41,926 nucleotides of DNA from Acidimicrobiales bacterium. Lineage in GTDB: Bacteria; Actinomycetota; Acidimicrobiia; Acidimicrobiales; RAAP-2. Below, piece by piece: positions 14,322-31,065 of this stretch; the stretch's first letter is position 1, and each line of letters starts with the position of its first letter. The DNA lies in assembly GCA_017883105.1 (NCBI GenBank), contig JADGOF010000001.1:1-41926 (forward strand). Direction: 5' to 3'. A program made the position numbers and the translations under genes. The notes below the pieces were generated by a model. That model saw nothing but the letters and a program-made list of their open reading frames with translations. It was not told the origin of the DNA and did not search any database.

Positions 14322-14359
14322 ACGCTGGGGTGCTCCGGCCTTTCGGCCACCGCGTTTAG

Positions 14360-14525: not shown

Positions 14526-14675
14526 ACCGCTTCGTTATGTGAAGGCACGACTTGGTGAGAACGATTGGCATTTGGGGTGACGTTCCAGTTTGGAGCGGGT
14601 CCGCGCGACCGATGGACGGGCAGCAACGAGCCGGACCCGAACCCTTGCGGACGAACTTGTGCCTACGCTTGAGCC

Positions 14676-15611
14676 ATGCGGCTCAACACCGAGGAACGGC
14701 GCCGGCTCCGCCTCATGGAGTGGCTGATCGAACAGGATCCAGGGCTGCAGAGCGTTGGACCGCTCTACGAAGGCCAGCCCCGCTCGTTCGACCTTTCCCG
14801 GGGAGACGTGAAGCACCTCGAGGCGGACGGCTTCGTGACCAGCTATTTTGCCGGCGGCATGCTCGCCCGAGCCGAGGCGACCTCCGACGGCCGTGCCTGG
14901 TTCGACGATATTCGAGTCCATCGGGACAACAAGATCGAGCGGCGGTGGGCTTGCCGAATGGGACTCGTCGAGTGGCTCGACCACGTCGGTGCCGCCTCTG
15001 TGCGCACGCTCGCGGCGCTGGATGGTTTTGGCGGAGACGTGCGCGCCGACTTCTACGGCCAGCCATTCACTGCTGACGAAATGGACGCTGCCGCCGCTTG
15101 GCTTCGGGACAGAGGTCTCATCGATGGCATTTCCGTGGAGGAGCTCCTCGGGCCGGTCAGAGCCCACCTCACGAACGCAGGCCTCGACTGCGTCGAGAAT
15201 TGCGGCGGGGACGTCCGCCGATATGTATCCGAAAGCGAGCGGGCAAGGCTGGAAGGGCCCAACATCAGAATCACCGCCGGGGGACACGTCCAATTTGCTA
15301 CGGGGTCAGGATCCAACCAGCACATCGAGGTCAACGAGGCCGCGGCGCAGATCCGACTGGAGGTCTCTGGGCTGGTCGAAATTCTAAGAGCCTTGGGCGT
15401 CGCCGACGCCGAAGAACTCGAGGCACTCTACGAAGATGCCGTCGTCGGCCTGAGCGGTGGCGAACCCACGGAGGAACCGTTCCATCGATTCTCTGTCCGC
15501 GCACGCAGCCTTGCCGGGAAGACTGGCAACATCGCTGCGACGGCAGCCGTCTCGACCCTCGTGACCACCCTCGTCACCAACGCTCAGCATCTGATCGCGG
15601 GTTTTCACTGA
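14676..15611 (+). CDS. Hypothetical protein (311 aa)
   Basis: ATG start and GC3-rich codons. The N-terminal half has two similar ..(E/M)WL....G..// L...G(L/F)(I/V).G.. modules (possibly tandem winged-helix). The C-terminal tail is hydrophobic/Thr-rich. No family recognised. Confidence 0.6.
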   Translation: MRLNTEERRRLRLMEWLIEQDPGLQSVGPLYEGQPRSFDLSRGDVKHLEADGFVTSYFAGGMLARAEATSDGRAWFDDIRVHRDNKIERRWACRMGLVEWLDHVGAASVRTLAALDGFGGDVRADFYGQPFTADEMDAAAAWLRDRGLIDGISVEELLGPVRAHLTNAGLDCVENCGGDVRRYVSESERARLEGPNIRITAGGHVQFATGSGSNQHIEVNEAAAQIRLEVSGLVEILRALGVADAEELEALYEDAVVGLSGGEPTEEPFHRFSVRARSLAGKTGNIAATAAVSTLVTTLVTNAQHLIAGFH

Positions 15612-15703
15612 GCACGATGTCCGGCGACGAAGCCGAGTAGGCAGCCGGTCACGACCGAGGATGATCCGGTCTTCCCCGTACCCGAATGACAGAAAGGGCA
15701 CGC

Positions 15704-16396
15704 TTACCCGAGCCAGTACATATGGTCGATCCCCTTCATGGTGACCGAGATGTTCGATGGGAGGCCAGCCGTGGCGAGCGTCTGATAGGTCGCCAAGTAG
15801 CGGAGCGTGTGTTCGAAATAGACAGAGTTGGCTTTGTCCGCCACCATCGCGGCCCGGAGTGGCTTTGCAGCCGCTGCATAGTCAAGACGGTGAAGTCGTG
15901 CGTGCTCATCCGTGTTGCCGTCGAAGATGGGGACGAGATTCGGTGCGGCGGGCCAAAGAAACTTTGATGCGAAGGACGTCGCCCGGCCTGAGTTCGGGAA
16001 CGCACCTTGGAGAATCGTGACGATCGCCTGGTGGGCGATTACGACCGCGGCCATGGCGGTAGCATTTGGCGTCGCGAACGCGGCCAGAGAAGTGACCACA
16101 TCCGTCACGGTCGACCACTGCGACTGGAGTGCCTTGGCGGCAACGAAGTCGGCATTCGAGCCGATCGTCCGATTGAGTTGGGCCCGGTACACCCCGTGCA
16201 TGAACACGACTCGGAGGTGGATGTCCTCGAACGACCCGGAGCTGTGCGTCCGCACTAGGTTGACCAGCTCGGCGTCGACATGCTGCCAGTCGGTCAGATA
16301 CGACGCCCACGCCGACTGGTAACGCTGAGCGAGTGTGGGCTTGGCGAGTTGCGTCACGAATCGCCTCCCATCGAAGCTACGGCCAGCACTCGGCAT
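15704..16396 (-). CDS. Hypothetical protein (230 aa from the internal ATG)
   Basis: ORF open to 16576, but its first 60 codons are Pro/Arg/Gly-rich. ATG at 16396 (MPSAGRSF..) is taken as the start. Convergent with the 311-aa gene. No family recognised with confidence. Confidence 0.5.
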   Translation of the reverse strand: MPSAGRSFDGRRFVTQLAKPTLAQRYQSAWASYLTDWQHVDAELVNLVRTHSSGSFEDIHLRVVFMHGVYRAQLNRTIGSNADFVAAKALQSQWSTVTDVVTSLAAFATPNATAMAAVVIAHQAIVTILQGAFPNSGRATSFASKFLWPAAPNLVPIFDGNTDEHARLHRLDYAAAAKPLRAAMVADKANSVYFEHTLRYLATYQTLATAGLPSNISVTMKGIDHMYWLG

Positions 16397-16589
16397 TCGT
16401 GGATCTGGTTTGGGGGTTAGTACGAAGGTCGTGGGAATCCGCCCACATCGTATGGAGTCTCGCGGTCCACGGCCACCGGGGCCTCCCTGACGCCTCCGCG
16501 GCGAAGGCGGCGACGCTCCCGAATACCGAGACACGCGGGAGAAGGTCAACGGACGGATTGAGTCAGGCGTATCCAAGATGACCCCGGAT

Positions 16590-16725
16590 GTCGGGTTCGA
16601 TATTGCTGCCGGACCAGCTGATGGAGGATGCCGGGAAGGCCGGTCTGCGCTGAGGTCATGGTGGCGGCGGTCGTTCTGGCGCGTCGTTCGGCACTCGAGC
16701 GGGTGCGCTCAATGGCCGCCTGTAG
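16590..16725 (+). repeat. Intergenic repeat family, copy E
   Basis: GTCGGGTTCGAT.. then ..GCCGGTCTGCGCTGAGGTCATGGTGGCGGCGGTCGTTCTGGCGCGTCGTTCGGCACTCGAGCGGGTGCGCTCAATGGCCGCC. Aligns with copy B over ~80 nt. Confidence 0.7.
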
Positions 16726-16755
16726 CAAGGCGCCCGCGATGTGAAGACAGCGAAG

Positions 16756-19437
16756 TCAGCGTCGTCTTGAGTACGCCGAACTAGGCGACGTCGGCCGCTT
16801 CGGCAGGTCGCGTTTGTTCTTGCATGCCGGAAAGGCGGAGCAGCCGAGGAACGGACCGAACTTGCTGGTTCGTTCGACCATCGTCCCTTGACCACACCGT
16901 GAGCAGACCTCGACGGGGGTATCGCTGTCCCCTGTCACGGTCACGGTCACGTGAGGCTCGTCGAGGAGTTCGATTACGAACGGCGACATCCGCAGCGGCG
17001 GGGTGATGAGCGTGACCCCACGGCGCGCCCGGGTTAACGCCACGTAGAGGAGACGGCGTTCCTCAGCGTGAGCAAAGGATTCCGGTGCCGGCATGACCAA
17101 GTCGAGCACGGGGTCGTCGGCGATGTTGCTCGGGAATCCGTACGTGCCGGTCGTCATGCCGGGGATCACGATGAAGTCGGCCTCCAGCCCCTTGGACCCG
17201 TGCACGGTCCGGAACGTGACGCGCAAGTTTGACGGCAATTGCTTAGGGAGGAGGTCGCGATCGTGCCTGTAGCGCCCGAGAACGTCGACGCTGACCATTC
17301 CGGAGCGGTCGCTTGGGATGCTGCCGTCGGCAATGGCAGCGGACAGATCGCGGAGGTAGGAGGCGAGTGTGCCGGCGACGTCGTCGGCTCGTATGACCAT
17401 GATGGGCGCACCCGGATCGTGATGCGCAGACCGCATCGGCTTCTTGAACTGATTCGGGTTCTTGGACACGAAGTTGCGGGCGACGTCGCAGATCGGCTGC
17501 GTGCAACGGAAGGTGGTCGTCAACGCCAGCTGGCTTCCCCGGCCGAACCAGGCTTCGAAGTTCGTCATCACCGATAGGTCGGCCCCTGCGAACCGGTTGA
17601 TCGACTGCCAGTCGTCGCCTACCGAAAGTAGGAACCGACCCGGCGTCTTCACCAAACCGCGGACGATTCGGGCGCGGGCCTGGCTGACGTCCTGGAACTC
17701 GTCGACCATGATCAGGTCGTAGGGCCAGTCGGCGTTCCCTGTTTCGAGGTGGTCGGCCGCCTGGAGCAGCATGTCCTCGAAGTCAACGGCCTGGTCGGCA
17801 GCCAGTCTGCGTTCCCACTCGGTGTGGATCTGCCAATACACCTCGAGGAACAGCCGGGTCCTGAAGCCATCGAGATGGGCCGCGTCAGAGGCGAGCCGGT
17901 GTCCGAGATCTTCCTCTGTCCACGAGTTCGACTTGACGTTGGTCATGAACGTCCTGGCGAACCGCGCCAGGTCCTCGTGCTTCATGGGCCGCGCCCACTC
18001 GTCGCCGAGAGGACGGTCTGGGTTCCAGTCGAAGCTCAGCCCGAGCCGAGTGAGCTCGTCCTTGAGCTTCGTGAGGCCGTCACCGAACATGACGTCGGCC
18101 CATGTGGACTCGACGAGCATCGTCCCGTGCTGGGCGTGTAGGCGGCGCTTCCATGCCATGCCCTCTGAGTAGCCGTCGAACGCAGCGGGAGGCTTGCCGG
18201 CACGGTCAAGCGCCCAGTGCTCGTGCCAGACGCCGATGTCCGAGTAGTAGAAGTCCGGGTGGTACTGCGAGTGAGTGGCGTCCGCGACATTGACGTCGTA
18301 TGGCCGCTCGTACTCGTAGTTGACCCCGTTGAGGTACAGGAAGTTGGCGATCAGCCGTTCGCTGTGGCTCTTGACGACCTCGCCGGCGAACGTCCGGTAG
18401 CCGGTCTCGCTGGTCGCTTTGTCGTAGCCGTCCGGTTCGTTCTCAGTGAGGTCTATCGGGGCGTTCGCAAACAGCATCCGGTAGAGATCCCAGCGGTACC
18501 GGAAGGACAGGGAAGAATCCCGCAGCTCGTCGACGATGCGCATGACCATCCGGACGTCGCCCCCCTGATCAAGCCACTGCGCCAGACGGGGCTTTTCGCC
18601 GGTGGCTCGGCCGATGACGTCGAGTCCGAACGAGTGGAACGTGGAGGCCTGCAGCCCGGACGAGTCGATCCTGGCGGCGGCAAACCGCTCAGAAACACGT
18701 TCCTGCAGCTCGGTCGCGGCAGCCTTGTTGAACGCCAGCAGCAGGATGCGGTCAGGGGCAGTGAACCCGCGGGTGACGGCGTAGGCGGCCCGGGCGACCA
18801 TCACGGAGGTCTTTCCGGACCCGGCGGCGGCGAGCACCTGGACCCGGTTGTCGAAGCACACAACCGCTCGTGCTTGCTCGTCAGTGAGCGGGCTCTTCTC
18901 GATCGTGTCGAAGAATGCCCGTCGGGACGAGAGCTCGGCGACCATAATGTGTTCGTTGGTCTCTGCGACCAGGGTCTTCAGGTCGGTGTCCAGGAAGCCC
19001 ACCGCCTCGAGCTGACCCTCGGTGAGGAGCGGCTCACACCCAGCAGTACGGACACGGTCGAGAAGTCGCGGTTCGGGACGGGTCGCGAGCAATGCGTCAA
19101 CAGCTTCGGCAGGGATCCACCGTTGCCCGGTGCACGCCACGGCGAGGTGGTGAGTGACGGCGGCGTGCCATGCGGTCGCATCAGTGATCGCCGGTGTCAG
19201 AGCAAGTCGCTGGAGCGCCCGTGTCAGGGCAGAGGCCTCGGATCGCGTCATGCCACGAAGGTGGGTTCGTGACTGGCCGTCGTGGTGGAGGCTCCAGTGC
19301 AGCCACCGGCGGCGCACCTCGAGCCGGGAGGCTTCCGTGCTGGGGATGCCGATGGAGCCCGACGCCTGAGCGATGGTGATCTCCGTCTCGGTGACGGTGA
19401 TCTTCCAGCCCTTGCCCGACCACTTGTCCGCGCTCAC
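16756..19437 (-). CDS. helD: Helicase IV (HelD)-like UvrD-family helicase with an inserted PD-(D/E)xK-like module and a C-terminal topoisomerase-type Zn ribbon
   Basis: 893 aa. FFDTIEKSPLTDEQARAVV..VLAAAGSGKTSVMVARAAY.., ..LIMVDEFQDVSQARARIV.., ..SVGDDWQSINRFAGAD.., ..VHGSKGLEADFIVIPG.. and ..AEERRLLYVALTRARRGV.. are colinear with E. coli helicase IV as I recall it. Insert: SERLIANFLYLNGVNYEYERPY..YHPDFYY..GVWHEHW. C-terminus: CSRCGQGTMVERTSKFGPFLGCSAFPACKNK. Confidence 0.88.
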   Translation of the reverse strand: MSADKWSGKGWKITVTETEITIAQASGSIGIPSTEASRLEVRRRWLHWSLHHDGQSRTHLRGMTRSEASALTRALQRLALTPAITDATAWHAAVTHHLAVACTGQRWIPAEAVDALLATRPEPRLLDRVRTAGCEPLLTEGQLEAVGFLDTDLKTLVAETNEHIMVAELSSRRAFFDTIEKSPLTDEQARAVVCFDNRVQVLAAAGSGKTSVMVARAAYAVTRGFTAPDRILLLAFNKAAATELQERVSERFAAARIDSSGLQASTFHSFGLDVIGRATGEKPRLAQWLDQGGDVRMVMRIVDELRDSSLSFRYRWDLYRMLFANAPIDLTENEPDGYDKATSETGYRTFAGEVVKSHSERLIANFLYLNGVNYEYERPYDVNVADATHSQYHPDFYYSDIGVWHEHWALDRAGKPPAAFDGYSEGMAWKRRLHAQHGTMLVESTWADVMFGDGLTKLKDELTRLGLSFDWNPDRPLGDEWARPMKHEDLARFARTFMTNVKSNSWTEEDLGHRLASDAAHLDGFRTRLFLEVYWQIHTEWERRLAADQAVDFEDMLLQAADHLETGNADWPYDLIMVDEFQDVSQARARIVRGLVKTPGRFLLSVGDDWQSINRFAGADLSVMTNFEAWFGRGSQLALTTTFRCTQPICDVARNFVSKNPNQFKKPMRSAHHDPGAPIMVIRADDVAGTLASYLRDLSAAIADGSIPSDRSGMVSVDVLGRYRHDRDLLPKQLPSNLRVTFRTVHGSKGLEADFIVIPGMTTGTYGFPSNIADDPVLDLVMPAPESFAHAEERRLLYVALTRARRGVTLITPPLRMSPFVIELLDEPHVTVTVTGDSDTPVEVCSRCGQGTMVERTSKFGPFLGCSAFPACKNKRDLPKRPTSPSSAYSRRR

Positions 19438-19620
19438 CGGGTGTCTCGCATGCCGTCGCCCCTCGCGAGCTTGCTTGCTCGCCGGGTGGCGTCGATCGTC
19501 ACTCTCAACACGGTCGTGATATCGGCAACTCCGCCTGTTAGCTGAACACGACCGGCTTCGTCGGCCCCGGGCGGTGGCACGTCGGGAACTGCCATTCGAC
19601 TCGCCCCCTTCCGTCTGGAT

Positions 19621-20328
19621 TCAGCTGGGCGCGCATTGTGAGGGTGCCCGAACTCTCACGTCGATTCGTCGCGCGGTGTCTGGATCCGCATCGAGGTAGG
19701 CCAGAATTCGATATGACCCGGGTCCCGGCGCGTCAACTCTGACATGGAACATGTGTTCAACCCCGGGTCCGAAAGTGTCGTAGCCGACAGTGCAAGCCAT
19801 AAAATCGGGATCACCCTTGGCTCGATCCTCCGCTGTGGTCTCAACTGGCAGAACTGCCAGATAGTGCTGCCTCCGTGGGTCATCGATCACGGTGAGGTCA
19901 CAGTCGACAGGTGCATAGATGTTGAGGAGTGCGTCATCGAGTGGAGTGACCCCGTTGTTCACTGCAGTGACCCGCACGATGAACGTCTTTTCCTCCAGTT
20001 CAACGGATGGGATACCGTTCCGGTTCAGATCCACACGACGCGGCACCGATCCTGGGCTGTCGGCGATCTCGAATCCGAGCGCCATCTTGGGCGATCGGAT
20101 CTGTGATGTCGCCCAAGCCCAAAACGATGGCAGTGCAATGACAACCGCTGTCAATGCGGCGGAGACGGCGATGAGGCCAAACGCCGCCGAGAATCCTTCG
20201 TAGGCCCGGGGTGCGCGCTTCCCGAGGACAGAGGCAGCTTCCAGATCCACGGCAAGGACGATTGTGATGATGGCCACGACCATGAGGCCAATCAGCACGA
20301 TGGCGGCTCGTTTGCCACTCCCTCTCAT
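19621..20328 (-). CDS. Membrane protein with two N-terminal TM helices and a beta-rich C-terminal domain (235 aa)
   Basis: AAIVLIGLMVVAIITIVLAV and FGLIAVSAALTAVVIALPSFWAWA are hydrophobic helices. The remainder is unrecognised. Lies between the putative REase and helD on the same strand. Confidence 0.6.
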   Translation of the reverse strand: MRGSGKRAAIVLIGLMVVAIITIVLAVDLEAASVLGKRAPRAYEGFSAAFGLIAVSAALTAVVIALPSFWAWATSQIRSPKMALGFEIADSPGSVPRRVDLNRNGIPSVELEEKTFIVRVTAVNNGVTPLDDALLNIYAPVDCDLTVIDDPRRQHYLAVLPVETTAEDRAKGDPDFMACTVGYDTFGPGVEHMFHVRVDAPGPGSYRILAYLDADPDTARRIDVRVRAPSQCAPS

Positions 20329-20446: not shown

Positions 20447-21448
20447 TCAGATCGGTATGTATCCGCAAGCGTCCTCATGTGCTGTGTCCAGGTAGACCTT
20501 GGATTCCGGTGCCGCCCGGAATCGTCCATGGCTCCAACGGATCTCCACGTGGCCCTCGGTTTCGTGCGTGAACCCGGTCTCGCGACTGATGAACGATGCC
20601 TTCCACTGGACTTGCGGCTGCCCGGCCTCCCCAGGCGAGATGTCCAGCCCATCGAAGCTGAATATCCTGCGAAGGTCCCAAGGGGTGAGCACGCGTAGAC
20701 GGGTGGGGCCAGAGGGTTGGCGGCCAAGAATGAAGTAAGGCGCGCTATGGATCCGCAGGAGTCTCCAATAGAAGCGCTCTCGGTCCCTCGTGGTGGCCAG
20801 CGTCTGAATCAAGAGAGTGGCACTCCTGATGCTCACTGCGCTCACCAGCGCTGCCACCTCTGGGGCTAGAGCATCTGGCCACTTGCGAGGCAACCGGGTC
20901 TTGAGGACGATCCGCTGCTCACGGGTCAGTTCAGAAGGCGTCGTGGGGAAACCGGTCAGAGCGAGATGACGGACAGCGGCCTTGTAGAGGTTGGCGAGTT
21001 CGACTGGAGCGATCTCCTCGTACCAGTCGCTGCCGCCGAAGTCCGGATTGCGCAGTGCTGAACGAAAGAGGGCTGCAGGTGACGGATTAAGGAGAACCTT
21101 GGAGAGGTTCTTGCAGCTGACGATGAAGACGCCGTCGATCCGGAGATCTGCTGGAAGCGGATCGTCCTCGGGGGGGAGATGAGGTCCCTTCCATTCGATT
21201 GACAGGGGTGCCCGACGCCTCAGCCCGAGTTCGGACTCGAAGAAATAGCGGCCGTCGGCGAGTGCATCGGCAAACGGCTGGGCATAGGTGCCCGTCGACC
21301 ACAACCCCCGGAGGGTCTCCCACGTTCCAGTATCCACTCCGACGAGTACATGGGGAACGCCGGCGTCGAAGGCATCCTGCAAGTCCAGACCCGGGATCAT
21401 GCCGAGTCCGGTTCCGATCTCCGTGATGAGCGTCAGTTCACGACTCAT
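20447..21448 (-). CDS. Putative type II restriction endonuclease partner of the adjacent methyltransferase (family not recognised)
   Basis: 333 aa. The ATG at 21448 overlaps the methylase stop (ATGA 21445-21448). Possible PD..(D/E/S)xK-like element ..PADLRIDGVFIVSCKN... The call rests mainly on genomic context. Confidence 0.45.
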   Translation of the reverse strand: MSRELTLITEIGTGLGMIPGLDLQDAFDAGVPHVLVGVDTGTWETLRGLWSTGTYAQPFADALADGRYFFESELGLRRRAPLSIEWKGPHLPPEDDPLPADLRIDGVFIVSCKNLSKVLLNPSPAALFRSALRNPDFGGSDWYEEIAPVELANLYKAAVRHLALTGFPTTPSELTREQRIVLKTRLPRKWPDALAPEVAALVSAVSIRSATLLIQTLATTRDRERFYWRLLRIHSAPYFILGRQPSGPTRLRVLTPWDLRRIFSFDGLDISPGEAGQPQVQWKASFISRETGFTHETEGHVEIRWSHGRFRAAPESKVYLDTAHEDACGYIPI

Positions 21449-22665
21449 GGGTCGACCTGAGGCTTTGCTCTCTCGGCCTTGATCCGTGCCCGAGCAAGAG
21501 CCACGTATTTTCGGTCGGTGTCGTAGCCGACGTAGTGCCGACCTGTCTGAACCGCGGCGACCCCGGTCGTACCGGCCCCGACGAAAGGATCGAGGACGAG
21601 GTCATCCTTGTAGGTGTAGAGCTCGATCAGCCGACGGGGCAGGTCCACCGGGAAGGGCGCCGGATGTCCGACCCGTGTGGCCGACTCGGGTCGGATCTTC
21701 CACGTATCAAGGGTCGCATCGAGGAACTCGTCCTTGCTGATCGTGTTCTCGTGGGGCATCCCGAGCTTCGCTCGCTTCTTCCGGTCGATCGCCCGGTCCA
21801 GTCGGAGCTTGCTCGCGACCACCACCCGCTCGGTGACATCACGCAACACGGGATTGGCGGCCGAAAGGTACGAGCCCCAGGCGCATGATCCTGACGCCCC
21901 CTCGGCCTTGACCCAGAGGATCTCCCCTCGCATCAGGAATCCAAGATCATCCTGGAGGATTCTCGTCACGTCGGCACTCAGGGAGCGATAGGGCTTGCGT
22001 CCCAGATTGGCTACGTTCACGGCGATACGCCCGCCAGGCTCTAGCACCCGCCAGCATTCCGCAAACACGTCGCTGAGCATGATCAAGTAGTCGATGTAGC
22101 TCGACGGAACCCCGCCTTTGCCCAGCTCGGTCTCGTATTCTTTGCCTGCATAGTACGGCGGTGATGTCACCACTAGGGCCACTGAGTTGTCATTGACTAC
22201 CCTCATGTGGCGAGAGTCGCCGGTGACGAGCTTGTCGACGGTCACGGGTGCAGCAGGAACTCCTGTCGAGTCCTGTTGCAGCGGGGTGAATCGACTGTAG
22301 AAGTCGGACGAGTCGTGGCCTTCCCGGTTCGAGACACCGAAGGTCGAAGTCTTTGTGGGCGCCCCACGCCGGCGAGCAGGTCCCGTCGGGTTCGCCGGGG
22401 TTGTCTCCTTCTCTTGGGTCAAGTCGAATCCTTTGTTGGTCAAGGGAGAACTTAGCCGTCTGTGGTCCCATACGATCTTGGAGGGAGACTTTTCCGAGGG
22501 CGCTCCTGGAGCCCTGAGCGCTCGGTTCCCACGGGGCGAGGCCGGCACCCCGAAGGAGCGTGCGTCGGCTTCGACGGTCAATCTACGTTCGGGCTGTATC
22601 ACTTCGCCCTGAGGCCCAGGAAGCCCGACCGAATGGACCGGCGAGGAAGGGACACTCCTTGTCAT
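21445..22665 (-). CDS. Beta-class DNA methyltransferase (N4-cytosine/N6-adenine; SPPY motif suggests N4C)
   Basis: Motif IV ..ALVVTSPPYYAGKEYE.. precedes motif I ..LVLDPFVGAGTTGVAAVQTGRHYVGYD.. (beta-class permutation). The ORF is open to 23079, but the first ~138 codons look non-coding. ATG 22665 is taken as the earliest plausible start and the true start may lie further downstream. Confidence 0.85.
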   Translation of the reverse strand: MTRSVPSSPVHSVGLPGPQGEVIQPERRLTVEADARSFGVPASPRGNRALRAPGAPSEKSPSKIVWDHRRLSSPLTNKGFDLTQEKETTPANPTGPARRRGAPTKTSTFGVSNREGHDSSDFYSRFTPLQQDSTGVPAAPVTVDKLVTGDSRHMRVVNDNSVALVVTSPPYYAGKEYETELGKGGVPSSYIDYLIMLSDVFAECWRVLEPGGRIAVNVANLGRKPYRSLSADVTRILQDDLGFLMRGEILWVKAEGASGSCAWGSYLSAANPVLRDVTERVVVASKLRLDRAIDRKKRAKLGMPHENTISKDEFLDATLDTWKIRPESATRVGHPAPFPVDLPRRLIELYTYKDDLVLDPFVGAGTTGVAAVQTGRHYVGYDTDRKYVALARARIKAERAKPQVDP

Positions 22666-22794
22666 CGGACACCTCTTGACCCGTGGATCATTGACGGTGC
22701 GAACATGCAAGCGAGGTCCTGCGCCTTCCTCCGACCAGCGAGACCGTGCGGCAAGGGTCCCGTTGTTGGTCTGGTTGAACCGGCCTGGGATCCC

Positions 22795-22824
22795 CGGAGG
22801 CTCTGGCGGATCCCAGAGGCTCCG
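22795..22824. repeat. Imperfect 12-bp inverted repeat (also a direct repeat of GGATCCC(C/A)G(G)AGGCTC) in the long region between the methylase gene and the divergent operon
   Basis: CGGAGGCTCTGG-CGGATC-CCAGAGGCTCCG has one mismatch in the stem. Confidence 0.4.
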
Positions 22825-23278
22825 CACGTTCCCTCGTTCGCTAGTCAGACCGCCCCGGCCGGTCCGGACGTACGCAACAGTTCGGCGCCGGCCTCCCGCA
22901 CGCAGCCACGCATAATGACGCCCTGCACAGCCACCCTGCCGGGTCAGACCGAGAGCGGAACCGGCGTTATCTGGAGCCCTCTCCAAGAATGAGGGCTCAG
23001 CTGAAGGTTCGTGTGGTGGTCGTGTCACTGACGTGCATCCGTGTCCAAGGCAAACGCACAACTGTGACCCCTTAGGCATCCAGCGTCGATACCTGAATCG
23101 ATCCTGAAGTTCACGAACGCGGCCGCCAATACGGCCACGGTCGTCTGCGTTGCTCCAAAACGCAGGTTCCCCACACTAATTACCACGAGGCAGCCAGCGG
23201 CCATATCCAGCCTTCTTGTTACACCCCGCCACTACGATCGGTGACTACTTCGCTTGACGAACAGCAGGGAGCCTTGAG

Positions 23279-24193
23279 ATGCCGACCGTCCAACGTGGCC
23301 TCTACGCGTATTCCATCCATGGACGCGGGCGGTCGGGTGAGGTTATCGACTACACCGCGTTCGTCCAGTCTCTGGCGGCTGCCACTTCCGTCTTGCGGCG
23401 GGCAATCATCAACCAGGACGAGGTTGTCTTGCTTCGCGACATTCGGCAGTACGGACGAGTTTGGGAACTCCGATTCCTGTCCGGCAGCGATCGAGAGTCG
23501 CTGACACTGTTCGATGTCGGTAACGACCGTGAGCGGGACGACCCACGATCAGAAGGGGAGATAGTCGTTCGGCCGACATTTCTGTATCTCAATCCGGAAA
23601 CCCGTTTTGTCGCCCTAGAGCGTCGTCGCCCTGGACTCAGCGCAACCGAGATCGGCAAGGCGCTCGGGATCATTGGCACCGCTGTCGGCTTTGCTGACGA
23701 CCTTGTGATTGACCTGAACCCTGTGACCGCCGAATCCTTCAATGAAGAGTTGGCGCACTTCGAGCGGATTCGGCAAGCGTCCGTGACGGTGGCACGTCCG
23801 AACCTCGACTGGACGGAGAACGCCAACACCCTGACGGCCTACGCTGCAGAGTCGGATGGCCAGTCCGCCGAGCTGGAGATTTCGGCGCCCCGGGGCGGCT
23901 CACTGGCGAAGGAGCGGGGCATCGTGAAAGACATCAAGGAGCTCGTGCTCCATGCCATCGGACCCCTAAAGAAGGTCAAGATCGTCGGCCGCCACGCTGA
24001 CGAGAAGCGCGAGCGCACGCTCACGCTGGCTAACCATCAGGAGCGCCAGTTTGTGCCCGTCGAACGGAGCGGCACCGCCGATGATGAACGTGCCCAGGTC
24101 GCCCAGGGGGCAGAAAGCCTCCTCGACCGACTTGAACTTGCCGCCGCTTCGGCCGACCCACCAGAACCCATCAACTCCGAGCCAAATGAGTAA
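23279..24193 (+). CDS. Hypothetical soluble protein (304 aa), first gene of a two-gene operon
   Basis: GGGAG 8 nt upstream of the ATG at 23279. No NTPase, nuclease or HTH motif recognised. Charged C-terminal third. The stop TAA 24191-24193 overlaps the next gene (ATGAGTAA). Confidence 0.7.
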   Translation: MPTVQRGLYAYSIHGRGRSGEVIDYTAFVQSLAAATSVLRRAIINQDEVVLLRDIRQYGRVWELRFLSGSDRESLTLFDVGNDRERDDPRSEGEIVVRPTFLYLNPETRFVALERRRPGLSATEIGKALGIIGTAVGFADDLVIDLNPVTAESFNEELAHFERIRQASVTVARPNLDWTENANTLTAYAAESDGQSAELEISAPRGGSLAKERGIVKDIKELVLHAIGPLKKVKIVGRHADEKRERTLTLANHQERQFVPVERSGTADDERAQVAQGAESLLDRLELAAASADPPEPINSEPNE

Positions 24194-24764
24194 CGAGACC
24201 GAACCAACGGATAATCAAAACAACTTTTGGTCATGCCAAGTGTGGCAACGGCGCGGGAAGCTCTTCACCTGGCGACGTGGCATCTTGGCTGCGGTAGTCG
24301 GACTGGCAGCGGCATTCCTGATCCCGCGGACCGGCAACGAACAAGCCCTGGTATCGGATCTGGCGGCAACCGCATTGACCTTCGCTTCGATCTCCTTCGG
24401 GGCATGTCTCACCGGAGCCGTCTTGGCACTCACGGTGCCATCGAAGGACCAGCGAGAATACTGGTCGCAGTCTGGTCTTAGCGATAGCCCGTTCTCGCAC
24501 TTCAGCGATTTGATGTTCGTCTTCACCTGGTCATCCATGAGTCAGCTTGCCGTTGTCGGCGCCGGCCTGGGTCTATATATCTCCGAGGCTCCTCCGGCTC
24601 CAATTGCCGGGCAACACGTGTATCTTGCGCTGCGCATCTTCCTCGGGATCCTCGGAGCTGTCAGCGTCAACGCTTTCCTTCAGCTCACCGCCGTCGTCAA
24701 GACCATCTCCCAAATGGCGGTCGTCGGCTCGAAGCCAGGTTCAGGCGTTGACAACGGTGGTTGA
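24186..24764 (+). CDS. Four-TM membrane protein (192 aa), second gene of the two-gene operon
   Basis: The ATG at 24186 overlaps the upstream stop by 8 nt. Hydrophobic helices GILAAVVGLAAAFLIP, ATALTFASISFGACLTGAVLALTV, LMFVFTWSSMSQLAVVGAGLGLYI and VYLALRIFLGILGAVSVNAFLQLTAVV. Confidence 0.7.
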   Translation: MSNETEPTDNQNNFWSCQVWQRRGKLFTWRRGILAAVVGLAAAFLIPRTGNEQALVSDLAATALTFASISFGACLTGAVLALTVPSKDQREYWSQSGLSDSPFSHFSDLMFVFTWSSMSQLAVVGAGLGLYISEAPPAPIAGQHVYLALRIFLGILGAVSVNAFLQLTAVVKTISQMAVVGSKPGSGVDNGG

Positions 24765-25468
24765 GCTTGGCTGTCGCCCGGCCTGCGAGCGAGGATGCGC
24801 AGACCGTCGCCATCTGATTCGTGCCGTGCGCCGCCAGGGTGGTCGACTTAACCATCGGAGAACGCGATGGCAGTTCCATCTTCGTCAGAAGATACCGTCC
24901 GGGCCTCGCAGGCAGAGGGCAAGCTGAGTCGTCCGGCCTGTCGCCGTCGAGCGGCGATCATCATGCCGAATCGCCGCCGCAAACAAGTCGGCAGACGATC
25001 GCCCACAATGACACTCGAGAGCGTCTCAATCGAGTACGGATATTCCGATTGGCTTTCGGCAATGTAGCTACCGCGGCCACGGATTCGCCGCCCATCTGGC
25101 ATGCATCGACGGTCTCGGTGGCGAACAGCGGACAGCCTCGCAGCGTTGAGTCCACCACAGTTGCGTACGAGGGAGTACCCGACCTGAGGGTCGCCCGAAG
25201 TCACCACAACATCCACCGCAGCTATTCGGGCGAGCGAACTGCAGATCAGCTATGGGCCCGCCGCGATTTTGATCGATCGGTTGCGAGGGTGCTGACCAGC
25301 GCGGATGCCCAAGGAATCGTGCAACTTGTTCAGCGGCGAGCCCTATGTCTTGATTGCGGACAAGAGGCGCGACTACGCGAGATGGACACGCGTGGCATGT
25401 AGTCCGTTGGATCCGGCTCGTGTGGGCCAGCACTTCATTTGCTGTGCGACCAACCGTCTGGATCCGGG

Positions 25469-28400
25469 CTACCGGCCGAGATCGGACGGGGACAGTGACG
25501 CCGCTCGCCCGTGGTGGCGTGTCAACGAGGTATCGCCAGCCCGCGCCGTCACAAGGGCATCCCCGATTGAAGTTGGAAACGCAGTGACCGGCGAGTTGGC
25601 CACCTCATGGTCAATACATTCGGGTCCTTGGGCTCGGCGTTCTTCCTCGGCAATGGAAGCGCTCGACGACCCCGGCTCCGTTTCCTGAGTCGGCTTTGGC
25701 GTCAAGGCTTCGGTGATCTCGGCTTGCCGGCCACGTAGGGCTGCGAGTCGGGGCATCTGGTCGAAGGGCCGGCCGATCATCGCGCCGGCCTGCTCGGCGT
25801 TTGCTGTGGCGGAGCCAAGTTCCCGTGCGTCGTCGGTTAGCCGCTCTTCAAGATCTCCGAGCCGGTTGGCGAGCCTGCTCACTAGACCTACGGGATGTTC
25901 GCGCTCGATGTCGGCGGCACCGATCACAGTCGGGTGGAGCGGGGCGTCGGGGAAGAAGAGATGGAGCTCGTCCTCCCCGATCTCGCCCTTGACGGCGATC
26001 GCAAGGTCGAGCCCGGCGAGGTTCCCGATGCCAATGGTCTCCCCGTGCCGATATCGGGCATCGACGAGTGCGGCTTTGATGCGATCGCCGGCATCGGCGC
26101 GCTTCTCACAAGTAACACCCGTGATGGTGGCTCGGAAGGCGTCGCCGGAGATGTCCGTTCGGAGCGCCAATGCGCGTTCGATCCTGGCCATGTCGCGTTG
26201 AAGCCGTTCTATAGTGGGACCAGAGCCAGCGATCGTCTTGGACAGGCGGCGCTGTTCGACTGCGTGGGCCGATGCCATGCGTTCGAGCTTTGCCACCTCG
26301 GAGTCCACGCCGGCCTTCTCCATGATGAGCGGGTTGCCGGTGGCGAGTGCCTTCACCTCGCCGTAGCTGAGTGACTGCTCGCCGACGTCGTCCAGCTGGC
26401 GGGCAAGGGTTGCGTCTCCCCTAGTGACCTGGGCGATGAAGCCAGCCTTGCGCTCGACGGTGCCCCACATGAAGACGTCGAAGCTGGACTCGGTGACGTA
26501 GCGGAGGATCTCTATGTCTCGGTTGAGATTCCCTTGGCGGAGGATGCGACCTTCCCGTTGCTCGATGTCGGCCGGCCTCCAGGGGCAGTCCACATGGTGG
26601 AGCGCGACCGCACGGGCCTGCACGTTGGTTCCCACACCCATCTTCTCTGTCGATCCGATCAATACCCCCACCAATCCCGATCGGCACTGCGCGAACAGTT
26701 CGGCCTTCTCCCGGTCATTCTTCGCGTCGTGCATGAAGCGGACGGCCTCGGTCGGCACGCCCCGGTCGATGAGTTGGGACTTCAGCTCGTCGTAGACGTT
26801 CCACTCGCGTCGGGGTGTACCGATGTCGCAGAAGACCAACTGGAGCGCCCCGCGGCGCGATCCCTGCTCTGGGTACTCACGGTCGTTGTTGTCGACCCAG
26901 ATGCGACTGATCCGTTCTGCCGCCGCGCCGATCTTCCCGCCGTCGGGGTCGGGGTGCAGCCCGACGAGGCGGAGGTCGAGGGCGGCCTTTCGACCGTCGC
27001 CGGTCACTTTCAACATGTTGTCCTCTTCCGGCCTTACGGCACCCCGGGAGACGGCCTCGGCCCGAGCCACGAGGCCCTCGACATAGGTGAGGAGGCGATC
27101 GGAAGGTGGAACAACCACCACTTCGGCACGGCCGCCAAGGAGATTCGGCGTCGGAAGGGCGAGCTGCTCGGCTGTCCTGATGTCGGCCACCTCGGAGAAC
27201 ATCGAGACCAGTTCGGGGACGTTGGCGAACCGGGCGAAGCGGTCCTTCATCCGGTAGCTGCCACCGTCAGGGGCAAGCTCCAGGTTGGTCACGGTCCTCC
27301 CGAAGTTCGCGGCCCAGCCATCGAAAGTGGCAATTCCGGCTGCCGCCAGGGCATCGGGCTGCAGATAGCGCTGCATGACGTAGAGCTCGGAGATGGAGTT
27401 GGCTACGAACGTGGCGGTGGCGAACGTGGCAACCCGGTCACCGTGACGCCCCCGTAGAACCCGCAGCTTGAGTTCGATGTCCATGGCGCGCTTCGATCCC
27501 GAGCCGCCCACGCCCTGGATGCGGGTGGGGAAAGCGAGGTTCTTCGCCACGTGGGCCTCGTCCAAGAAGATGTAGTCGACCCCGGTCTCCTCGAATGTCA
27601 CCCCGTCGAGCCGTCGTCCGTCCTCTCGGGACTCCTTGATCCGCTCCTCCATCCGGATGATGGCGGCTTCCAGCTTCTTCACGCTGAGCCCGTGTTCCGC
27701 AGTCGACTGGGCCTGGGCGGTCCTGTAGGCGGCGACCTGGGAGTCGAGGTAGTCCGTCTCGGCCTCCTTGGAAACCGGGATCCGCACGAAGGCGTCGTGG
27801 GTGATGACGACGGCGTCCCAGTCTCCGGTGGCACACCGGGCCACGAACTCCTTTCGTGCGTCGGCTGCGGTGGCGTCCCTGGTCGCCACCAGGACGTTTG
27901 CCAGCGGGTAGGCCTGAAGGAATTCGGCGCTGAACTGTTCGAGCATGTGGTTGGGGACGACGTAGGCGGGCTTGGAAACGAGCCCGAGGCGCTTCATCTC
28001 CATTCCGGCGATCGCCATGGTGGCGGTCTTGCCCGCTCCGACCGCATGTCCGAGCAGCACGGCCGGCTCTTGCACCGATCGCCACGCCGCATCCAGCTGG
28101 TGTTGGTGCGGCCGGAACGCGGATGACAGACCGGGCAGCGACTGATGACTACCGTCCCAGCTCGGGAGGACAACCGAGTTGAACAGCTCGTTGTACCGGC
28201 CGGCCAGCCGTTCGGCCCGGTCTTCGTCCTCCCAGATCCATGCAGCGAAGCGGTCGGAGAGGACCTGCTGCTTCTCCCTGGCCAGGAGCGTCGCCTCCGG
28301 GTTGAACACCCGTCCGCCGTCCCCGTCGGGGTCGTAGACGACGGCCGAGGTCTGATTGAGCGATTTGGTGAGCAGGTTCACGGCATCGAGCCGGTCGGTA

Positions 28401-30484
28401 CCCCAGGCGGACGTCATGGTCACGCTCTGCTTCTGCCAGGTCGGAACGGCGATGGTCCAGGTGGCCGTGACCTCGATGTGCTCGACGGCTACCTGAGTGG
28501 CACCAAGGGCCTCGCGGACGAACGCGGCCACATCGGTGGACTCGATCCAGGTGGCTCCGGGCCGGGCGTCAATCTCTTCCGGTAGCAGGTCGTCGGGGAG
28601 GACTATTCGGAGTGCGGCCACGTTAGGTGCGAACCGGGCGTCATCGGCGACGGCCGCCTCTGCCTCGCGGAGCTTCACCCGTACATTGCCCGAGAGGTAC
28701 CGGGCGCCAGGGACGAGTTGATCCGTCAATGGGTCGTCGAAGACCAGGGTCCCGAGACGGTGCCGGGCATCGACAGCTTCGATGCCGAGCAGGGCGGCCA
28801 CCCGGTCAAGGGTGACGATTCCCGATTCGTCGAGGCAGATGGTGACTGCCTCTTCGGGGCTGTCCGCTCGTCCCCTCACCTCCCGGGGACCGACCACCCG
28901 CTCGGAGAAGATCGCAGCTTTCTGTGCCGACTTGGTCTCGGAGTCGAACACTTCGAGGGCGAGGAGGGACGGGAAGTCCGGGTCGGTGCGGAACCCACCG
29001 AGCTTCGGGCTCCGGCGGCCGAAGATCGCCTCACCGGACTCCGCGTCGATCCTCCCCGTCTCGTAGCTGGTGAAGCGACTGATGGGTTCGTAGCGGGCCA
29101 CGTAGTCGTCGTAGTGGTCGTTCAACCGCTCCTGTGCGTTCCGGAACACGTCATCATCGGTACTCCCGGCCTGGAGGGTGAGCACCTCGGCCAGGGTGTT
29201 ACGCAGCTCGCAGAGTGCGCGCAATTCCTTTGCCTGGCCCTTCGGCGTCGCCTGGAACGGCTCCAGCTCGCCGTTCCGCACCCGGGCGAAGGTCGCCACG
29301 CCGGTGGCGATGATGGAGCCCTCCTTGTGCACCGGGAACGCTTCGAGCGTGAGGCCGGACAGGCCGGTGGCCGGACCGGGGATCCGTGTGGGCTCGGACC
29401 GTGGCTGGTAGGTGAGGCCGGCGTCTCGTGCCCGGGTGACGATGGCGGCCATTGCCGGTGCAATGGTCTTGTCCGGGTCGGCAATCACGTCCAGGTCGTC
29501 CGCCCCGTACTGGCCGTTCACCCGGCGGAGTTCCCCGAGGATCATCTCGGGATGGGCGGCGAAGTATTCGTTGACGGTGACCTCGCCGTCGACAGTGGTC
29601 ACCGGGCTGAGGGAGAGCCAACGCTCGCCGGCAAGCGCGGCGCCGGGCATCCGTTTTCGGAGGAGCACGATGTCGGTGACGACATCGGTACCCGACGTGG
29701 CTCGGAAGGTCCCGGCCGGGAGCCGGACGGCCCCGAGCAGGTTGGCTCGTTCGGCCATTTCCTGGCGGGCCGCGTCGGCCTGGGCGTCAAGGGTGAATCG
29801 GCTGGTGACGACAGCCAGGAGCCCGCCGGGCCGTGTCAGATCGAGGCTCTTGATGATGAAGTGGTTGTGGATCGAGTGGCGACCGGTGTTGTGATCGGGA
29901 TCGTGCAGTGTGATCTTGCCGAACGGGACGTTCCCGATGACCAGGTCCAGGTCGCCCTCCGGTAGAGCAGTGTCCGCGAAGCTTTCTGCTCGGATGGTGG
30001 CCGACGGATAGAGCGCGGCGGCGATGCCAGCCGTGGCCGGGTCGAGCTCCACCCCGGTGATCGAACACTCCGGCGGTGCGAAGCCGATGAAGTTGCCCGA
30101 CCCACAACCGGGTTCCAGGACCTTGCCGCCAGCGAAGCCGAGGTCGGCGACGGCAGACCAGACGGCTTGGACCACTTCGGCCGAGGTGTAATGGGCGTTG
30201 ATCGTTGTCCGTCGTGCTGCCGCCCACTCCGTGTCGGACAGAAGGGTGTGCAGCTCGACTCGGGTGGCGGCAAAGCGTGGATTGGACTCGTCGAACACTT
30301 CGGGAACCGCTCCCCAGCTCGCCCATCGCGCCAGGGTGGCCCGTTCCGACTGGGTTGCCGATCGCCCATCGGATTGCAGTTGCCGGAGGACCCGGAGGGC
30401 CGCCAGGTTCGCTGCGGTCTTGGCTACCGCTCCTGGCGGAGCAAGGTCGTGCTGTCCGGCTGGTCGGAATCCATCGCCGCCCAA
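25469..30484 (-). CDS. Giant N6-adenine DNA methyltransferase / SNF2-family helicase fusion (conjugative-element type)
   Basis: MTase motif I VLEPGCGSGNFIGF and motif IV VIGNVPFGK. Helicase motif I LLGHAVGAGKTATM, motif II IFLDEAHVAKN, motif V ..GSTEKMGVGTNVQ and motif VI QREGRILRQGN. The ORF is open to 30886, but the recognisable N-terminus starts ~GFRPAGQHDLAPPGAVAKTAANLAALRVL. An in-frame TTG at 30484 is given as a tentative start. Confidence 0.9.
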   Translation of the reverse strand: MGGDGFRPAGQHDLAPPGAVAKTAANLAALRVLRQLQSDGRSATQSERATLARWASWGAVPEVFDESNPRFAATRVELHTLLSDTEWAAARRTTINAHYTSAEVVQAVWSAVADLGFAGGKVLEPGCGSGNFIGFAPPECSITGVELDPATAGIAAALYPSATIRAESFADTALPEGDLDLVIGNVPFGKITLHDPDHNTGRHSIHNHFIIKSLDLTRPGGLLAVVTSRFTLDAQADAARQEMAERANLLGAVRLPAGTFRATSGTDVVTDIVLLRKRMPGAALAGERWLSLSPVTTVDGEVTVNEYFAAHPEMILGELRRVNGQYGADDLDVIADPDKTIAPAMAAIVTRARDAGLTYQPRSEPTRIPGPATGLSGLTLEAFPVHKEGSIIATGVATFARVRNGELEPFQATPKGQAKELRALCELRNTLAEVLTLQAGSTDDDVFRNAQERLNDHYDDYVARYEPISRFTSYETGRIDAESGEAIFGRRSPKLGGFRTDPDFPSLLALEVFDSETKSAQKAAIFSERVVGPREVRGRADSPEEAVTICLDESGIVTLDRVAALLGIEAVDARHRLGTLVFDDPLTDQLVPGARYLSGNVRVKLREAEAAVADDARFAPNVAALRIVLPDDLLPEEIDARPGATWIESTDVAAFVREALGATQVAVEHIEVTATWTIAVPTWQKQSVTMTSAWGTDRLDAVNLLTKSLNQTSAVVYDPDGDGGRVFNPEATLLAREKQQVLSDRFAAWIWEDEDRAERLAGRYNELFNSVVLPSWDGSHQSLPGLSSAFRPHQHQLDAAWRSVQEPAVLLGHAVGAGKTATMAIAGMEMKRLGLVSKPAYVVPNHMLEQFSAEFLQAYPLANVLVATRDATAADARKEFVARCATGDWDAVVITHDAFVRIPVSKEAETDYLDSQVAAYRTAQAQSTAEHGLSVKKLEAAIIRMEERIKESREDGRRLDGVTFEETGVDYIFLDEAHVAKNLAFPTRIQGVGGSGSKRAMDIELKLRVLRGRHGDRVATFATATFVANSISELYVMQRYLQPDALAAAGIATFDGWAANFGRTVTNLELAPDGGSYRMKDRFARFANVPELVSMFSEVADIRTAEQLALPTPNLLGGRAEVVVVPPSDRLLTYVEGLVARAEAVSRGAVRPEEDNMLKVTGDGRKAALDLRLVGLHPDPDGGKIGAAAERISRIWVDNNDREYPEQGSRRGALQLVFCDIGTPRREWNVYDELKSQLIDRGVPTEAVRFMHDAKNDREKAELFAQCRSGLVGVLIGSTEKMGVGTNVQARAVALHHVDCPWRPADIEQREGRILRQGNLNRDIEILRYVTESSFDVFMWGTVERKAGFIAQVTRGDATLARQLDDVGEQSLSYGEVKALATGNPLIMEKAGVDSEVAKLERMASAHAVEQRRLSKTIAGSGPTIERLQRDMARIERALALRTDISGDAFRATITGVTCEKRADAGDRIKAALVDARYRHGETIGIGNLAGLDLAIAVKGEIGEDELHLFFPDAPLHPTVIGAADIEREHPVGLVSRLANRLGDLEERLTDDARELGSATANAEQAGAMIGRPFDQMPRLAALRGRQAEITEALTPKPTQETEPGSSSASIAEEERRAQGPECIDHEVANSPVTAFPTSIGDALVTARAGDTSLTRHHGRAASLSPSDLGR

Positions 30485-30792
30485 AGGTCCTGTTGCACCT
30501 GGATACTGAAGGCCATCGCCGAGTCCGGGTCCATTGGCTCCTCCGGCTGCTCCGGCTGCTCCGGTGACGTCGGGTAGATCAGGTCTTGGACCGACTCCTC
30601 GGCCATCATCCTGGCCGCCAAGTCCTTCTCCCCGAGTTCCGGCTTCGAGAGCCTCAAGTAGGTCGAGGAGACTTGGCGTTCGGCCTCCTCCCCGATCTCG
30701 GTGAAGTACGCCTCCGGGTCCTCGATCGCGCTGTACTGGTCCGGGAAGTGTTGGAGCAGGTGCTGCTTGGCCTTCAGTCCATAGTGGTTCAC
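30424..30792 (-). CDS. Small conserved conjugative-element protein (TnpV-like pattern), overlapping the 5' end of the giant ORF in another frame
   Basis: ..NHYGLKAKQHLLQHFPDQYSAIEDPEAYFTEIGEEAERQVSS..LAARMMAEESVQDLIYP.. matches the pattern I recall for small proteins preceding such methylase-helicases. AAGGTGG lies 5 nt before the GTG at 30792 (ORF open from 30801). Confidence 0.55.
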   Translation of the reverse strand: MNHYGLKAKQHLLQHFPDQYSAIEDPEAYFTEIGEEAERQVSSTYLRLSKPELGEKDLAARMMAEESVQDLIYPTSPEQPEQPEEPMDPDSAMAFSIQVQQDLWAAMDSDQPDSTTLLRQER

Positions 30793-31065
30793 CGCTACCA
30801 CCTTTCAATAGCTGGTCGAAATCTAGTTGTTGCGTATCTCCGAGTTGCTCTGTTCCGCTGTCTCGTCGGGCTCCCCAGCGCCTCACGCCGACCTCCTGTC
30901 ACCGTAATTGGTGGATGCGACAGGTCGAGCGGGTGCCGGGGAGCTGGGGCGATTGTCGGGAGTTGAGCACGGCCATCTTGGCCACCGCCGAAGGGGGGCA
31001 CCTGGATGGCCGAGGACGAGGGTGTCCCCACGTGGCTGGAAGTTGTCGGGCATGGAAGGAGTGGC

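Follow-up and report, generated by a model that had tools for sequence, protein, structure and literature searches.

What do two small overlapping genes do that lie between restriction-modification (R-M) and conjugation genes in an Acidimicrobiales bacterium (Actinomycetota, assembly GCA_017883105.1)? The stretch analyzed here, referred to as the window, comprises 41,926 nucleotides of contig JADGOF010000001.1 (positions 1 to 41,926, forward strand), and the two open reading frames (ORFs) in question, ORF1 and ORF2, encode a soluble protein of 304 amino acids and a membrane protein of 192 amino acids. The initial annotation, made from the sequence alone, regarded them as a candidate sensor/membrane-effector defence pair of a kind not described before. 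We find a conserved and mobile two-gene operon for a sensor-like soluble protein and a four-transmembrane (4-TM) protein, located among defence genes, in agreement with that proposal. The claim of novelty was overstated, as ORF1 has a predicted RexA-type fold, has relatives that touch DUF4747, and precedes its membrane partner in the same order as in Sbash 30/31, CarolAnn 44/43 and lambda rexA-rexB. The pair is most likely a highly divergent member of the Rex-like (DUF4747/CarolAnn) systems that is invisible to sequence profiles, rather than a new kind of system. By analogy with these systems, we interpret it as a Rex-like two-component phage-exclusion (abortive-infection) module, carried as a 1.7-kb cassette in the accessory/defence region of a conjugative element, and we estimate the probability of this interpretation at slightly below 60%. 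Rex was among the first phage-exclusion systems to be described and its mechanism is still debated. To our knowledge, its known relatives are few and almost all of them are prophage-borne.

The ORF1 protein has no transmembrane segment and was not matched by any model in Pfam, NCBIfam, PADLOC or PHROGs, the RexA/RexB and Kiwa models included; for Pfam and PADLOC this holds at E<=1. The earlier remark that no motif could be assigned to it is thus correct at the level of sequence profiles. The comparison of predicted structures that had been suggested was more informative. An AlphaFold2 model built from 15 homologues is confident (mean predicted local distance difference test score, pLDDT, 81.4; predicted TM-score, pTM, 0.81), and its best two matches in the PDB are the chains of the lambda RexA crystal structure, 8twq_B and 8twq_A (Foldseek E 1.8e-8 and 6.3e-8), with a probability of 1.0 and ~313 aligned columns over the full length of the protein. 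The next matches are RdgC (E ~1e-4), followed by the kinetochore protein CENP-N. For RexA itself, the reported structural relatives are RdgC and two kinetochore proteins of yeast, IML3 and CHL4 (PMC11077077), and the set of matches obtained with ORF1 parallels this list. The modelled order of elements, with a beta-rich N-terminal domain to residue ~137, a beta-alpha-beta-alpha-beta-alpha-beta insert at residues 143-239, two strands and a long C-terminal helix, fits the split globular domain, four-stranded dimerisation insert and C-terminal helix of RexA. A search of the PDB sequences with hidden Markov model (HMM) profiles of the ORF1 family returned noise only.

A profile search of 1.84 billion representative proteins placed 276 clusters at 50% identity in the ORF1 family, 235 of them at E<=1e-10, with nearly all proteins about 290 amino acids long. 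The motifs RPNxDW and GIVxD are invariant in the family. Among the predicted viral structures in BFVD, five uncharacterised phage proteins of ~280-320 amino acids match the ORF1 model (E 7e-18 to 1e-9). Sequence bridges to known domains were obtained from relatives of ORF1, the window protein itself having no DUF4747 match in Pfam. In a set of 70 diverse family members, five gave weak matches to DUF4747 (PF15931.10; best 3.4e-4, below the gathering score) and eight gave weak matches to DUF6731 (best 1e-6, near full length). Precomputed matches to PF15931.11, the newer DUF4747 model, are available for six close homologues of ORF1; two distant relatives, P0150 and P0060, have unmarked DUF4747 matches, and the ORF1-type protein of loci L028-L030 has a weak one (L numbers denote the homologous loci). 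DUF4747 has been reported in lambda RexA, Sbash gp30, CarolAnn gp44 and, weakly, Butters gp30, which are the cytoplasmic halves of their systems and are each followed by a 4-TM protein (PMC6426596, PMC6426606, PMC7542560). The homology to Rex rests on the fold and on these peripheral DUF4747 matches, and not on a significant alignment to a characterised protein.

The ORF2 protein was likewise not matched by any model in Pfam, NCBIfam, PADLOC or PHROGs, including those for RexB and Kiwa. Hydropathy and the AlphaFold model both place four hydrophobic helices at residues ~29-45, 52-83, 105-133 and 142-181, as expected from the earlier description of a compact four-helix membrane protein. Positive charges at the N-terminus and in the loop between the second and third helix (TM2 and TM3) indicate a predicted inner-membrane protein with both termini inside. 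The best match of the ORF2 model in BFVD is a 165-amino-acid protein of Mycobacterium phage Sbash (probability 0.99, TM-scores 0.49/0.55), which has the exact length of gp31, the RexB-like component of that phage. The match at rank 6 is a 172-amino-acid protein of "Siphoviridae sp. ctylc9", and the same virus provided the best BFVD match of ORF1. The ORF2 family has an invariant block, F71-L82 and F103-Q120, and its invariant residues are concentrated where TM2 ends (FGACLTGAVLAL) and TM3 begins (FSDLxFVFTW) and in the central cytoplasmic loop between them (R90; loop at residues ~85-104). In Sbash gp31, the substitutions R70A and D73A in the central loop abolish defence.

We compared the surroundings of ORF1 relatives across loci, a check already proposed in the initial annotation. 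An ORF2 homologue was located directly 3' of the ORF1 relative, overlapping it or within ~70 nucleotides, in every locus with enough sequence. Close pairs were recovered from metagenomic contigs (L001-L008, L012, L018-L020 and L031), and pairs are also present in Acidithrix sp. C25 (L011) and in L028-L030. Pairs with 32-35% ORF1 identity were identified in an Aldehydirespiratoraceae metagenome-assembled genome (MAG; L021), in Dactylosporangium (L022) and in Acidobacteriaceae MAGs (L023-L025), and metagenomic contig L013 also carries a distant ORF1/ORF2 pair. The hmmsearch E-values for the downstream ORF2 homologues range from 1e-9 to 1e-100, and the only locus for which no partner was detected, L014, has just 219 nucleotides of downstream sequence. 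On shared contigs, divergence in the ORF1 family is paralleled by divergence in the ORF2 family, and the pair occurs in both Actinomycetota and Acidobacteriota.

The unit of conservation at the DNA level is sharply delimited. In blastn comparisons, L031 is 97.5% identical to the window over exactly 23094-24780, with unrelated flanks, and the identity to L001-L004 and L018-L020 (75-76%) and to L012 (72%) extends only from 23216/23278 to ~24723. When the proteins of L001 were compared with the window by tblastn, only the pair and a VirB4-like ATPase were found to be shared. The Dactylosporangium pair forms an islet with a low G+C content at third codon positions (GC3), 0.58 as compared to 0.85-0.9 in the genes around it. 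The pair is an obligate, conserved unit that moves as a self-contained 1.7-kb cassette. The coordinates of its parts and of the other features discussed below are listed in Table 1.

Table 1. Features of the window and of homologous loci; positions refer to the sequence named in the first column.
Sequence	Feature	Position	Strand	Remarks
Window	ORF1	23279-24193	+	ATG start, 304 amino acids, soluble, isoelectric point 5.15
Window	ORF2	24186-24764	+	ATG start, 192 amino acids, four hydrophobic helices
Window	Overlap of ORF1 stop and ORF2 start	24186-24193	+	8 nucleotides, ATGAGTAA, read from the sequence
Window	Ribosome-binding site GGGAG	23267-23271	+	7 nucleotides 5' of the ORF1 ATG
Window	Whole cassette (control region and two genes)	23094-24780	+	unit common to other contigs
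Window	Leader, presumed promoter-bearing, with GGGAG	23094-23278	+	185 nucleotides, conserved with L031
Window	Region 3' of ORF2	24765-25468		704 bp
Window	Short ORF 3' of ORF2	24867-25067		66 amino acids; called by one pipeline only, no support
Window	Imperfect inverted repeat	24770-24789 / 24905-24924		20 nucleotides
Window	Methyltransferase ORF	21445-23079	-	544 amino acids
Window	UvrD-type helicase	16756-19437	-	893 amino acids
Window	235-amino-acid protein	19621-20328	-	beside the UvrD-type helicase
Window	1805-amino-acid protein	25469-30886	-	1609 amino acids in another gene call
Window	Second segment shared with L031	19112-19575		464 nucleotides
L031	Second segment shared with the window	5187-5650		92.7% identical
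L011	Pair (Acidithrix sp. C25 chromosome)	8996-10429		looks decayed
L028	Wadjet genes, integrase, excisionase-like gene	12816-19550		also in L029 and L030
L001	428-432-amino-acid protein after pair	11511-12809	same as pair	
L018	428-432-amino-acid protein after pair	9511-10797	same as pair	
L019	428-432-amino-acid protein after pair	3730-5016	same as pair	
L003	428-432-amino-acid protein after pair	2715-4013	same as pair	
L001	Neighbours of pair			Tad/type IV secretion genes, ArdC
L005	Neighbours of pair			Vsr, C5 methyltransferase, 283-amino-acid gene, resolvases
L012	Neighbours of pair			SduA_C (Shedu nuclease domain), Mrr, integrase
L021	Neighbours of pair			IS30-type transposase, type III Res subunit
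L023	Neighbour of pair			type I HsdR immediately upstream
L028-L030	Neighbours of pair			C5 methyltransferase, IS3-type transposase, excisionase-like helix-turn-helix protein, tyrosine integrase, complete Wadjet JetABCD
L031	Neighbours of pair			HicA-like toxin, LysR

The anatomy of the operon was largely as first described. Both the ribosome-binding site and the overlap are located where they had been noted, and since the ORF1 stop and the ORF2 start overlap, translational coupling of the two genes is suggested. L001-L004 and L031 have the same 8-nucleotide overlap and L005 has one of 11 nucleotides; on other contigs, independent gene calls place the ORF2 start at this same ATG within the overlap. 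In both ORFs, G+C content varies with codon position as it does in real genes, and the mean column identity in alignments of homologues is 65% for ORF1 (n=21) and 55% for ORF2 (n=17). Their G+C contents (0.615 and 0.584) are indeed lower than that of the window (0.648), as estimated by eye in the initial annotation, although the lower value characterizes the entire 19.5-25.5 kb accessory stretch and is not specific to the pair.

The leader is 97.5% conserved with L031 and its final ~60 nucleotides are also conserved in L012 and L018-L020; a promoter presumably resides within it. No sigma-70 consensus site was found on the plus strand in a promoter scan of 22300-25600, and promoter, terminator and repeat scans of that interval, like an Rfam search of 22000-26000, gave nothing above background. 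The repeat scan revealed no terminal repeats at the cassette edges. The claim that some 700 bp after the pair are free of genes was borne out: this region has neither a supported gene nor coding periodicity, and Rfam gave no match. It separates ORF2 from the convergent gene for the 1805-amino-acid protein without a convincing terminator.

Two further observations concern the cassette in other loci. On the Acidithrix sp. C25 chromosome the ORF1 homologue has 280 amino acids and the ORF2 homologue is cut to 142 amino acids; a longer ORF2-like frame is still readable, and a DDE transposase and a group II intron reverse transcriptase are encoded nearby. In a subgroup with 77-84% ORF1 identity, a conserved protein of 428-432 amino acids is encoded on the same strand ~25 nucleotides 3' of the pair (L001-L003, L018 and L019). 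This protein, which lacks a Pfam match and is hydrophobic around residues 220-250 and 310-370, may be an optional third component. A third gene was considered for the window as well and rejected, as no remnant of the 428-432-amino-acid protein was found in the window by tblastn.

We also compared the genes next to the pair in the different loci (Table 1). Restriction genes of types I, II, III and IV are among its neighbours. In L028, JetA/DUF3375, JetB, JetC and JetD of Wadjet, a tyrosine integrase gene and an excisionase-like gene of the HTH_17 type make up a compact integrative defence island next to a distant copy of the pair. The association with defence genes is based on ~8 independent contexts and not on an enrichment statistic. 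In a study from 2026, "DUF4747/CarolAnn" operons are listed among known or predicted immune operons and are noted to be often sandwiched with R-M operons (PMC13373217).

In the window, the genes to the left of the pair encode a type II N4/N6 methyltransferase that overlaps a 333-amino-acid putative endonuclease, the 235-amino-acid protein and the UvrD-type helicase. Those to the right encode the 1805-amino-acid methylase-helicase, DUF4913 and a TraG/VirD4 coupling protein. On this gene content, the window represents the cargo part of a conjugative element of actinobacteria. The methyltransferase ORF is called too long at its 5' end: profiles for type II methyltransferases begin to align at residue 238, the GC3 periodicity fades at ~22400-22480, and an independent gene call starts at 22665 (406 amino acids), so that 0.4-0.65 kb from 22445/22665 to 23093 between the R-M pair and the cassette lack coding signal. 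The R-M genes are therefore separated from ORF1 by ~0.6-0.85 kb of apparently non-coding DNA rather than by ~200 bp. Upstream regulators of the capK/capS type, which have been reported for some DUF4747 operons, were considered for this interval and downgraded: its 0.6-0.85 kb are without coding periodicity and its ORFs resemble GC-rich noise, with no CapK/CapS sequence search made.

Several features of the other window genes were also recorded. The UvrD-type helicase has a ~180-amino-acid N-terminal extension, a C-terminal topoisomerase-type zinc ribbon and strong GajB-like matches in PADLOC, with no GajA partner. The adjacent 235-amino-acid protein has a hydrophobic N-terminus and no family match, and together the two may form another defence or accessory module. 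The 1805-amino-acid protein combines an N6-methyltransferase-like region at residues ~210-410 (matches to mad2 and to orphan methyltransferases) with a C-terminal region resembling the SNF2/DrmD/BrxH helicases, and its gene adjoins those for DUF4913 and TraG/VirD4 in the backbone of the conjugative element. The second segment shared with L031 corresponds to the 5' end and the upstream region of the UvrD-type helicase gene. Between this segment and the cassette are the R-M pair and the 235-amino-acid gene in the window, and a 524-amino-acid gene and LysR in L031, a pattern suggestive of a mosaic element with a variable slot.

If the pair acts like lambda RexAB, Sbash gp30/31 and CarolAnn gp44/43, on which the following steps are modelled, ORF1 and ORF2 would be produced from one transcript through translational coupling, ORF2 being a RexB-like 4-TM protein of the inner membrane. 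ORF1 would be a dimeric cytosolic sensor and activator that stays idle until an invading phage or another DNA element supplies a trigger, which could be a phage protein or a DNA-protein intermediate. The activated ORF1 would engage the conserved central cytoplasmic loop of ORF2, and ORF2 would then open or disturb the membrane, so that membrane potential and ATP collapse and the infection is aborted.

A number of results weigh against the assignment of the pair to the Rex-like systems. As controls, lambda RexA and RexB were recognised by their own profiles with scores of 1e-97 and 9e-110, and of 8.5e-92 and 8.6e-61, respectively, yet neither ORF1 nor ORF2 was matched by them. The global TM-score between the ORF1 model and RexA is only 0.39-0.42, with a root-mean-square deviation of ~14 A, which may be due to a differing orientation of the domains because RexA is a hinged two-domain protein. 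With hhalign, the ORF1-family profiles were at noise level against the single sequences of lambda RexA and CarolAnn gp44, and the alignment to a profile of 19 Sbash gp30 family sequences is marginal (E 0.0087, probability 4.6%, 143 colinear columns); plain HMM searches between the ORF1 and Sbash gp30 families gave no match in either direction. With a pLDDT of 61, the ORF2 model has low confidence, so its structural matches are hints only, and the match to the Sbash protein is weak (E 0.086). Comparisons of the ORF2 family with the sequences of RexB, CarolAnn gp43, Sbash gp31 and Sejanus gp45 remained at noise level, with an hhalign E of 0.4 for lambda RexB. No relatives of ORF1 were found by tblastn in GenBank phages (50,697 records) and PLSDB plasmids, or in a pattern scan of IMG/VR. 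No cI-like repressor adjoins the pair in the window, and the pair is not located in a prophage immunity region. The mechanism of Rex is itself unsettled because DNA binding by RexA is dispensable for T4rII exclusion (PMC11077077), and the analogy is a better guide to the type of system than to how it works in detail. Any phage phenotype of the pair is attributed to it by analogy.

Could the pair instead serve the mobile element that carries it? ORF1 would then be an RdgC/RexA-like DNA-binding protein that modulates recombination or a switch of the element, with ORF2 as its membrane partner, or the two would form an addiction (toxin-antitoxin-like) or entry-exclusion module that stabilises the element. 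At the lambda switch, RexA binds DNA in a role that is independent of RexB, and it biases the decision between lysis and lysogeny, RdgC (2OWL/2OWY) is the second-best structural match of ORF1 over its full length, which parallels the reported relation between RexA and RdgC (PMC11077077), the pairs in the window and in L001 lie inside conjugative elements (TraG/VirD4, DUF4913, VirB4-like, Tad, ArdC), and integrases, resolvases and transposases are frequent neighbours. However, the RdgC match is ~10^4-fold weaker than that to RexA, and no Pfam match to RdgC was obtained for ORF1. The RdgC gene is a stand-alone chromosomal gene that is not known to have a 4-TM partner. The relatives of ORF1, in contrast, are always paired with a 4-TM gene, and this strict linkage misfits a role directed purely at DNA. 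The pairs in L021 and L023 adjoin restriction genes of the chromosome, and the neighbours scanned there include no conjugation gene; a function in the backbone of the element fits poorly because the cassette moves on its own between unrelated contexts. We therefore consider such a housekeeping or control function unlikely.

The novelty of the pair could also be defended by assuming convergence, such that ORF1 shares a common alpha/beta scaffold with RexA and RdgC without common ancestry or mechanism and ORF2 is an unrelated 4-TM effector. The lack of significant profile-profile similarity to the proteins of lambda RexAB, CarolAnn and Sbash would agree with this, as would the low global TM-score and the invariant motifs of both families, which have not been described for Rex proteins. 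On the other hand, RexA is the single best match of ORF1 in the whole PDB, DUF4747 was matched independently in several family members, ORF2 independently points to a Sbash protein of the length of gp31, and the order and overlap of the two genes are as in the actinophage Rex-like systems; we find convergence improbable. The resemblance to Kiwa noted in the initial annotation was not upheld. Only the two-gene architecture of a membrane and a soluble protein, their similar sizes and the 4-TM topology would speak for a distant variant of Kiwa in which the gene order is reversed, so that the KwaB-like soluble protein is encoded before the KwaA-like 4-TM protein. The recommended searches produced no match to KwaA, KwaB or DUF4868 for either protein in Pfam or PADLOC, and no PADLOC match of any kind, kwaA is located upstream of kwaB whereas the membrane gene is downstream here, and the ORF1 model matches RexA and RdgC, with no Kiwa protein among the 50 PDB matches listed. 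A relationship to Kiwa is thus very improbable, and the assignment to the Rex-like systems remains the best explanation.

If this assignment is correct, the combination of a RexA-fold protein and a 4-TM protein is far more widespread than current profile libraries reveal, and such pairs occur outside phages, both on elements that conjugate or integrate and in defence islands on the chromosomes of Actinomycetota and Acidobacteriota. What is new is that the family is large (276 clusters), reaches into Acidobacteriota, resides outside prophages as a 1.7-kb cassette next to restriction systems, and was undetected by any of the profile libraries searched (Pfam-A, NCBIfam, PADLOC 2.0 and PHROGs). 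More speculatively, a large unannotated Rex-like clade may have left prophages to spread as an autonomous cassette that lands beside R-M and other DNA-targeting defences (types I-IV, Wadjet and Shedu-type). The RexA-fold protein might sense the DNA or DNA-protein products of those systems and so provide a second-line abortive-infection layer coupled to restriction, and it might also act on conjugative or plasmid DNA; this extended scenario is improbable. The alignments of the family can be used as new detection profiles, and the motifs RPNxDW and GIVxD in ORF1 and the TM2 end, central loop and TM3 start in ORF2 are targets for mutagenesis. The repeated adjacency to R-M genes could help to probe how Rex-like sensors are triggered.

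The comparison with the known systems shows where the pair agrees with them and where it departs. In lambda RexAB, as in the window, the gene for a soluble protein of ~280-300 amino acids comes first, with the two-domain RexA fold as the best PDB match of ORF1, and the gene for a small 4-TM protein follows immediately on the same strand; both pairs are borne by mobile elements. The lambda genes differ in that ORF1 and ORF2 have no detectable sequence similarity to RexA and RexB (Pfam PF15969/PF15968; PADLOC PDLC02339/PDLC02340), in the length of RexB (144 amino acids, compared to 192 for ORF2), and in a 15-nucleotide gap between rexA and rexB in place of the 8-nucleotide overlap. In addition, lambda RexAB belongs to a prophage immunity region, where it is co-expressed with the repressor, and excludes superinfecting phage with loss of membrane potential, for which both proteins are needed. 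The window pair has no prophage cI-type repressor beside it and is cargo of a conjugative element, adjacent to an R-M pair. The actinophage systems Sbash gp30/gp31, CarolAnn gp44/gp43 and Butters gp30/gp31 ("DUF4747/CarolAnn") are phage-borne, whereas the family of the window pair was not found in GenBank phages or IMG/VR and its ORF1 family extends into Acidobacteriota; the soluble proteins of these phage systems are also longer (370-372 amino acids, compared to 304 for ORF1). These systems share with the window pair their actinobacterial hosts and a gene for a cytoplasmic protein, DUF4747-bearing in the phages and with mostly weak DUF4747 matches among the relatives of ORF1, that is followed by an overlapping 4-TM gene, with overlaps of 41 nucleotides in Sbash 30/31, 26 nucleotides in CarolAnn 44/43 and 8 nucleotides in the window. 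Sbash 30/31 is expressed from its own promoter, and the window cassette carries its own conserved leader. Conservation of the central cytoplasmic loop in the membrane protein is a further feature that the window pair has in common with the actinophage systems.

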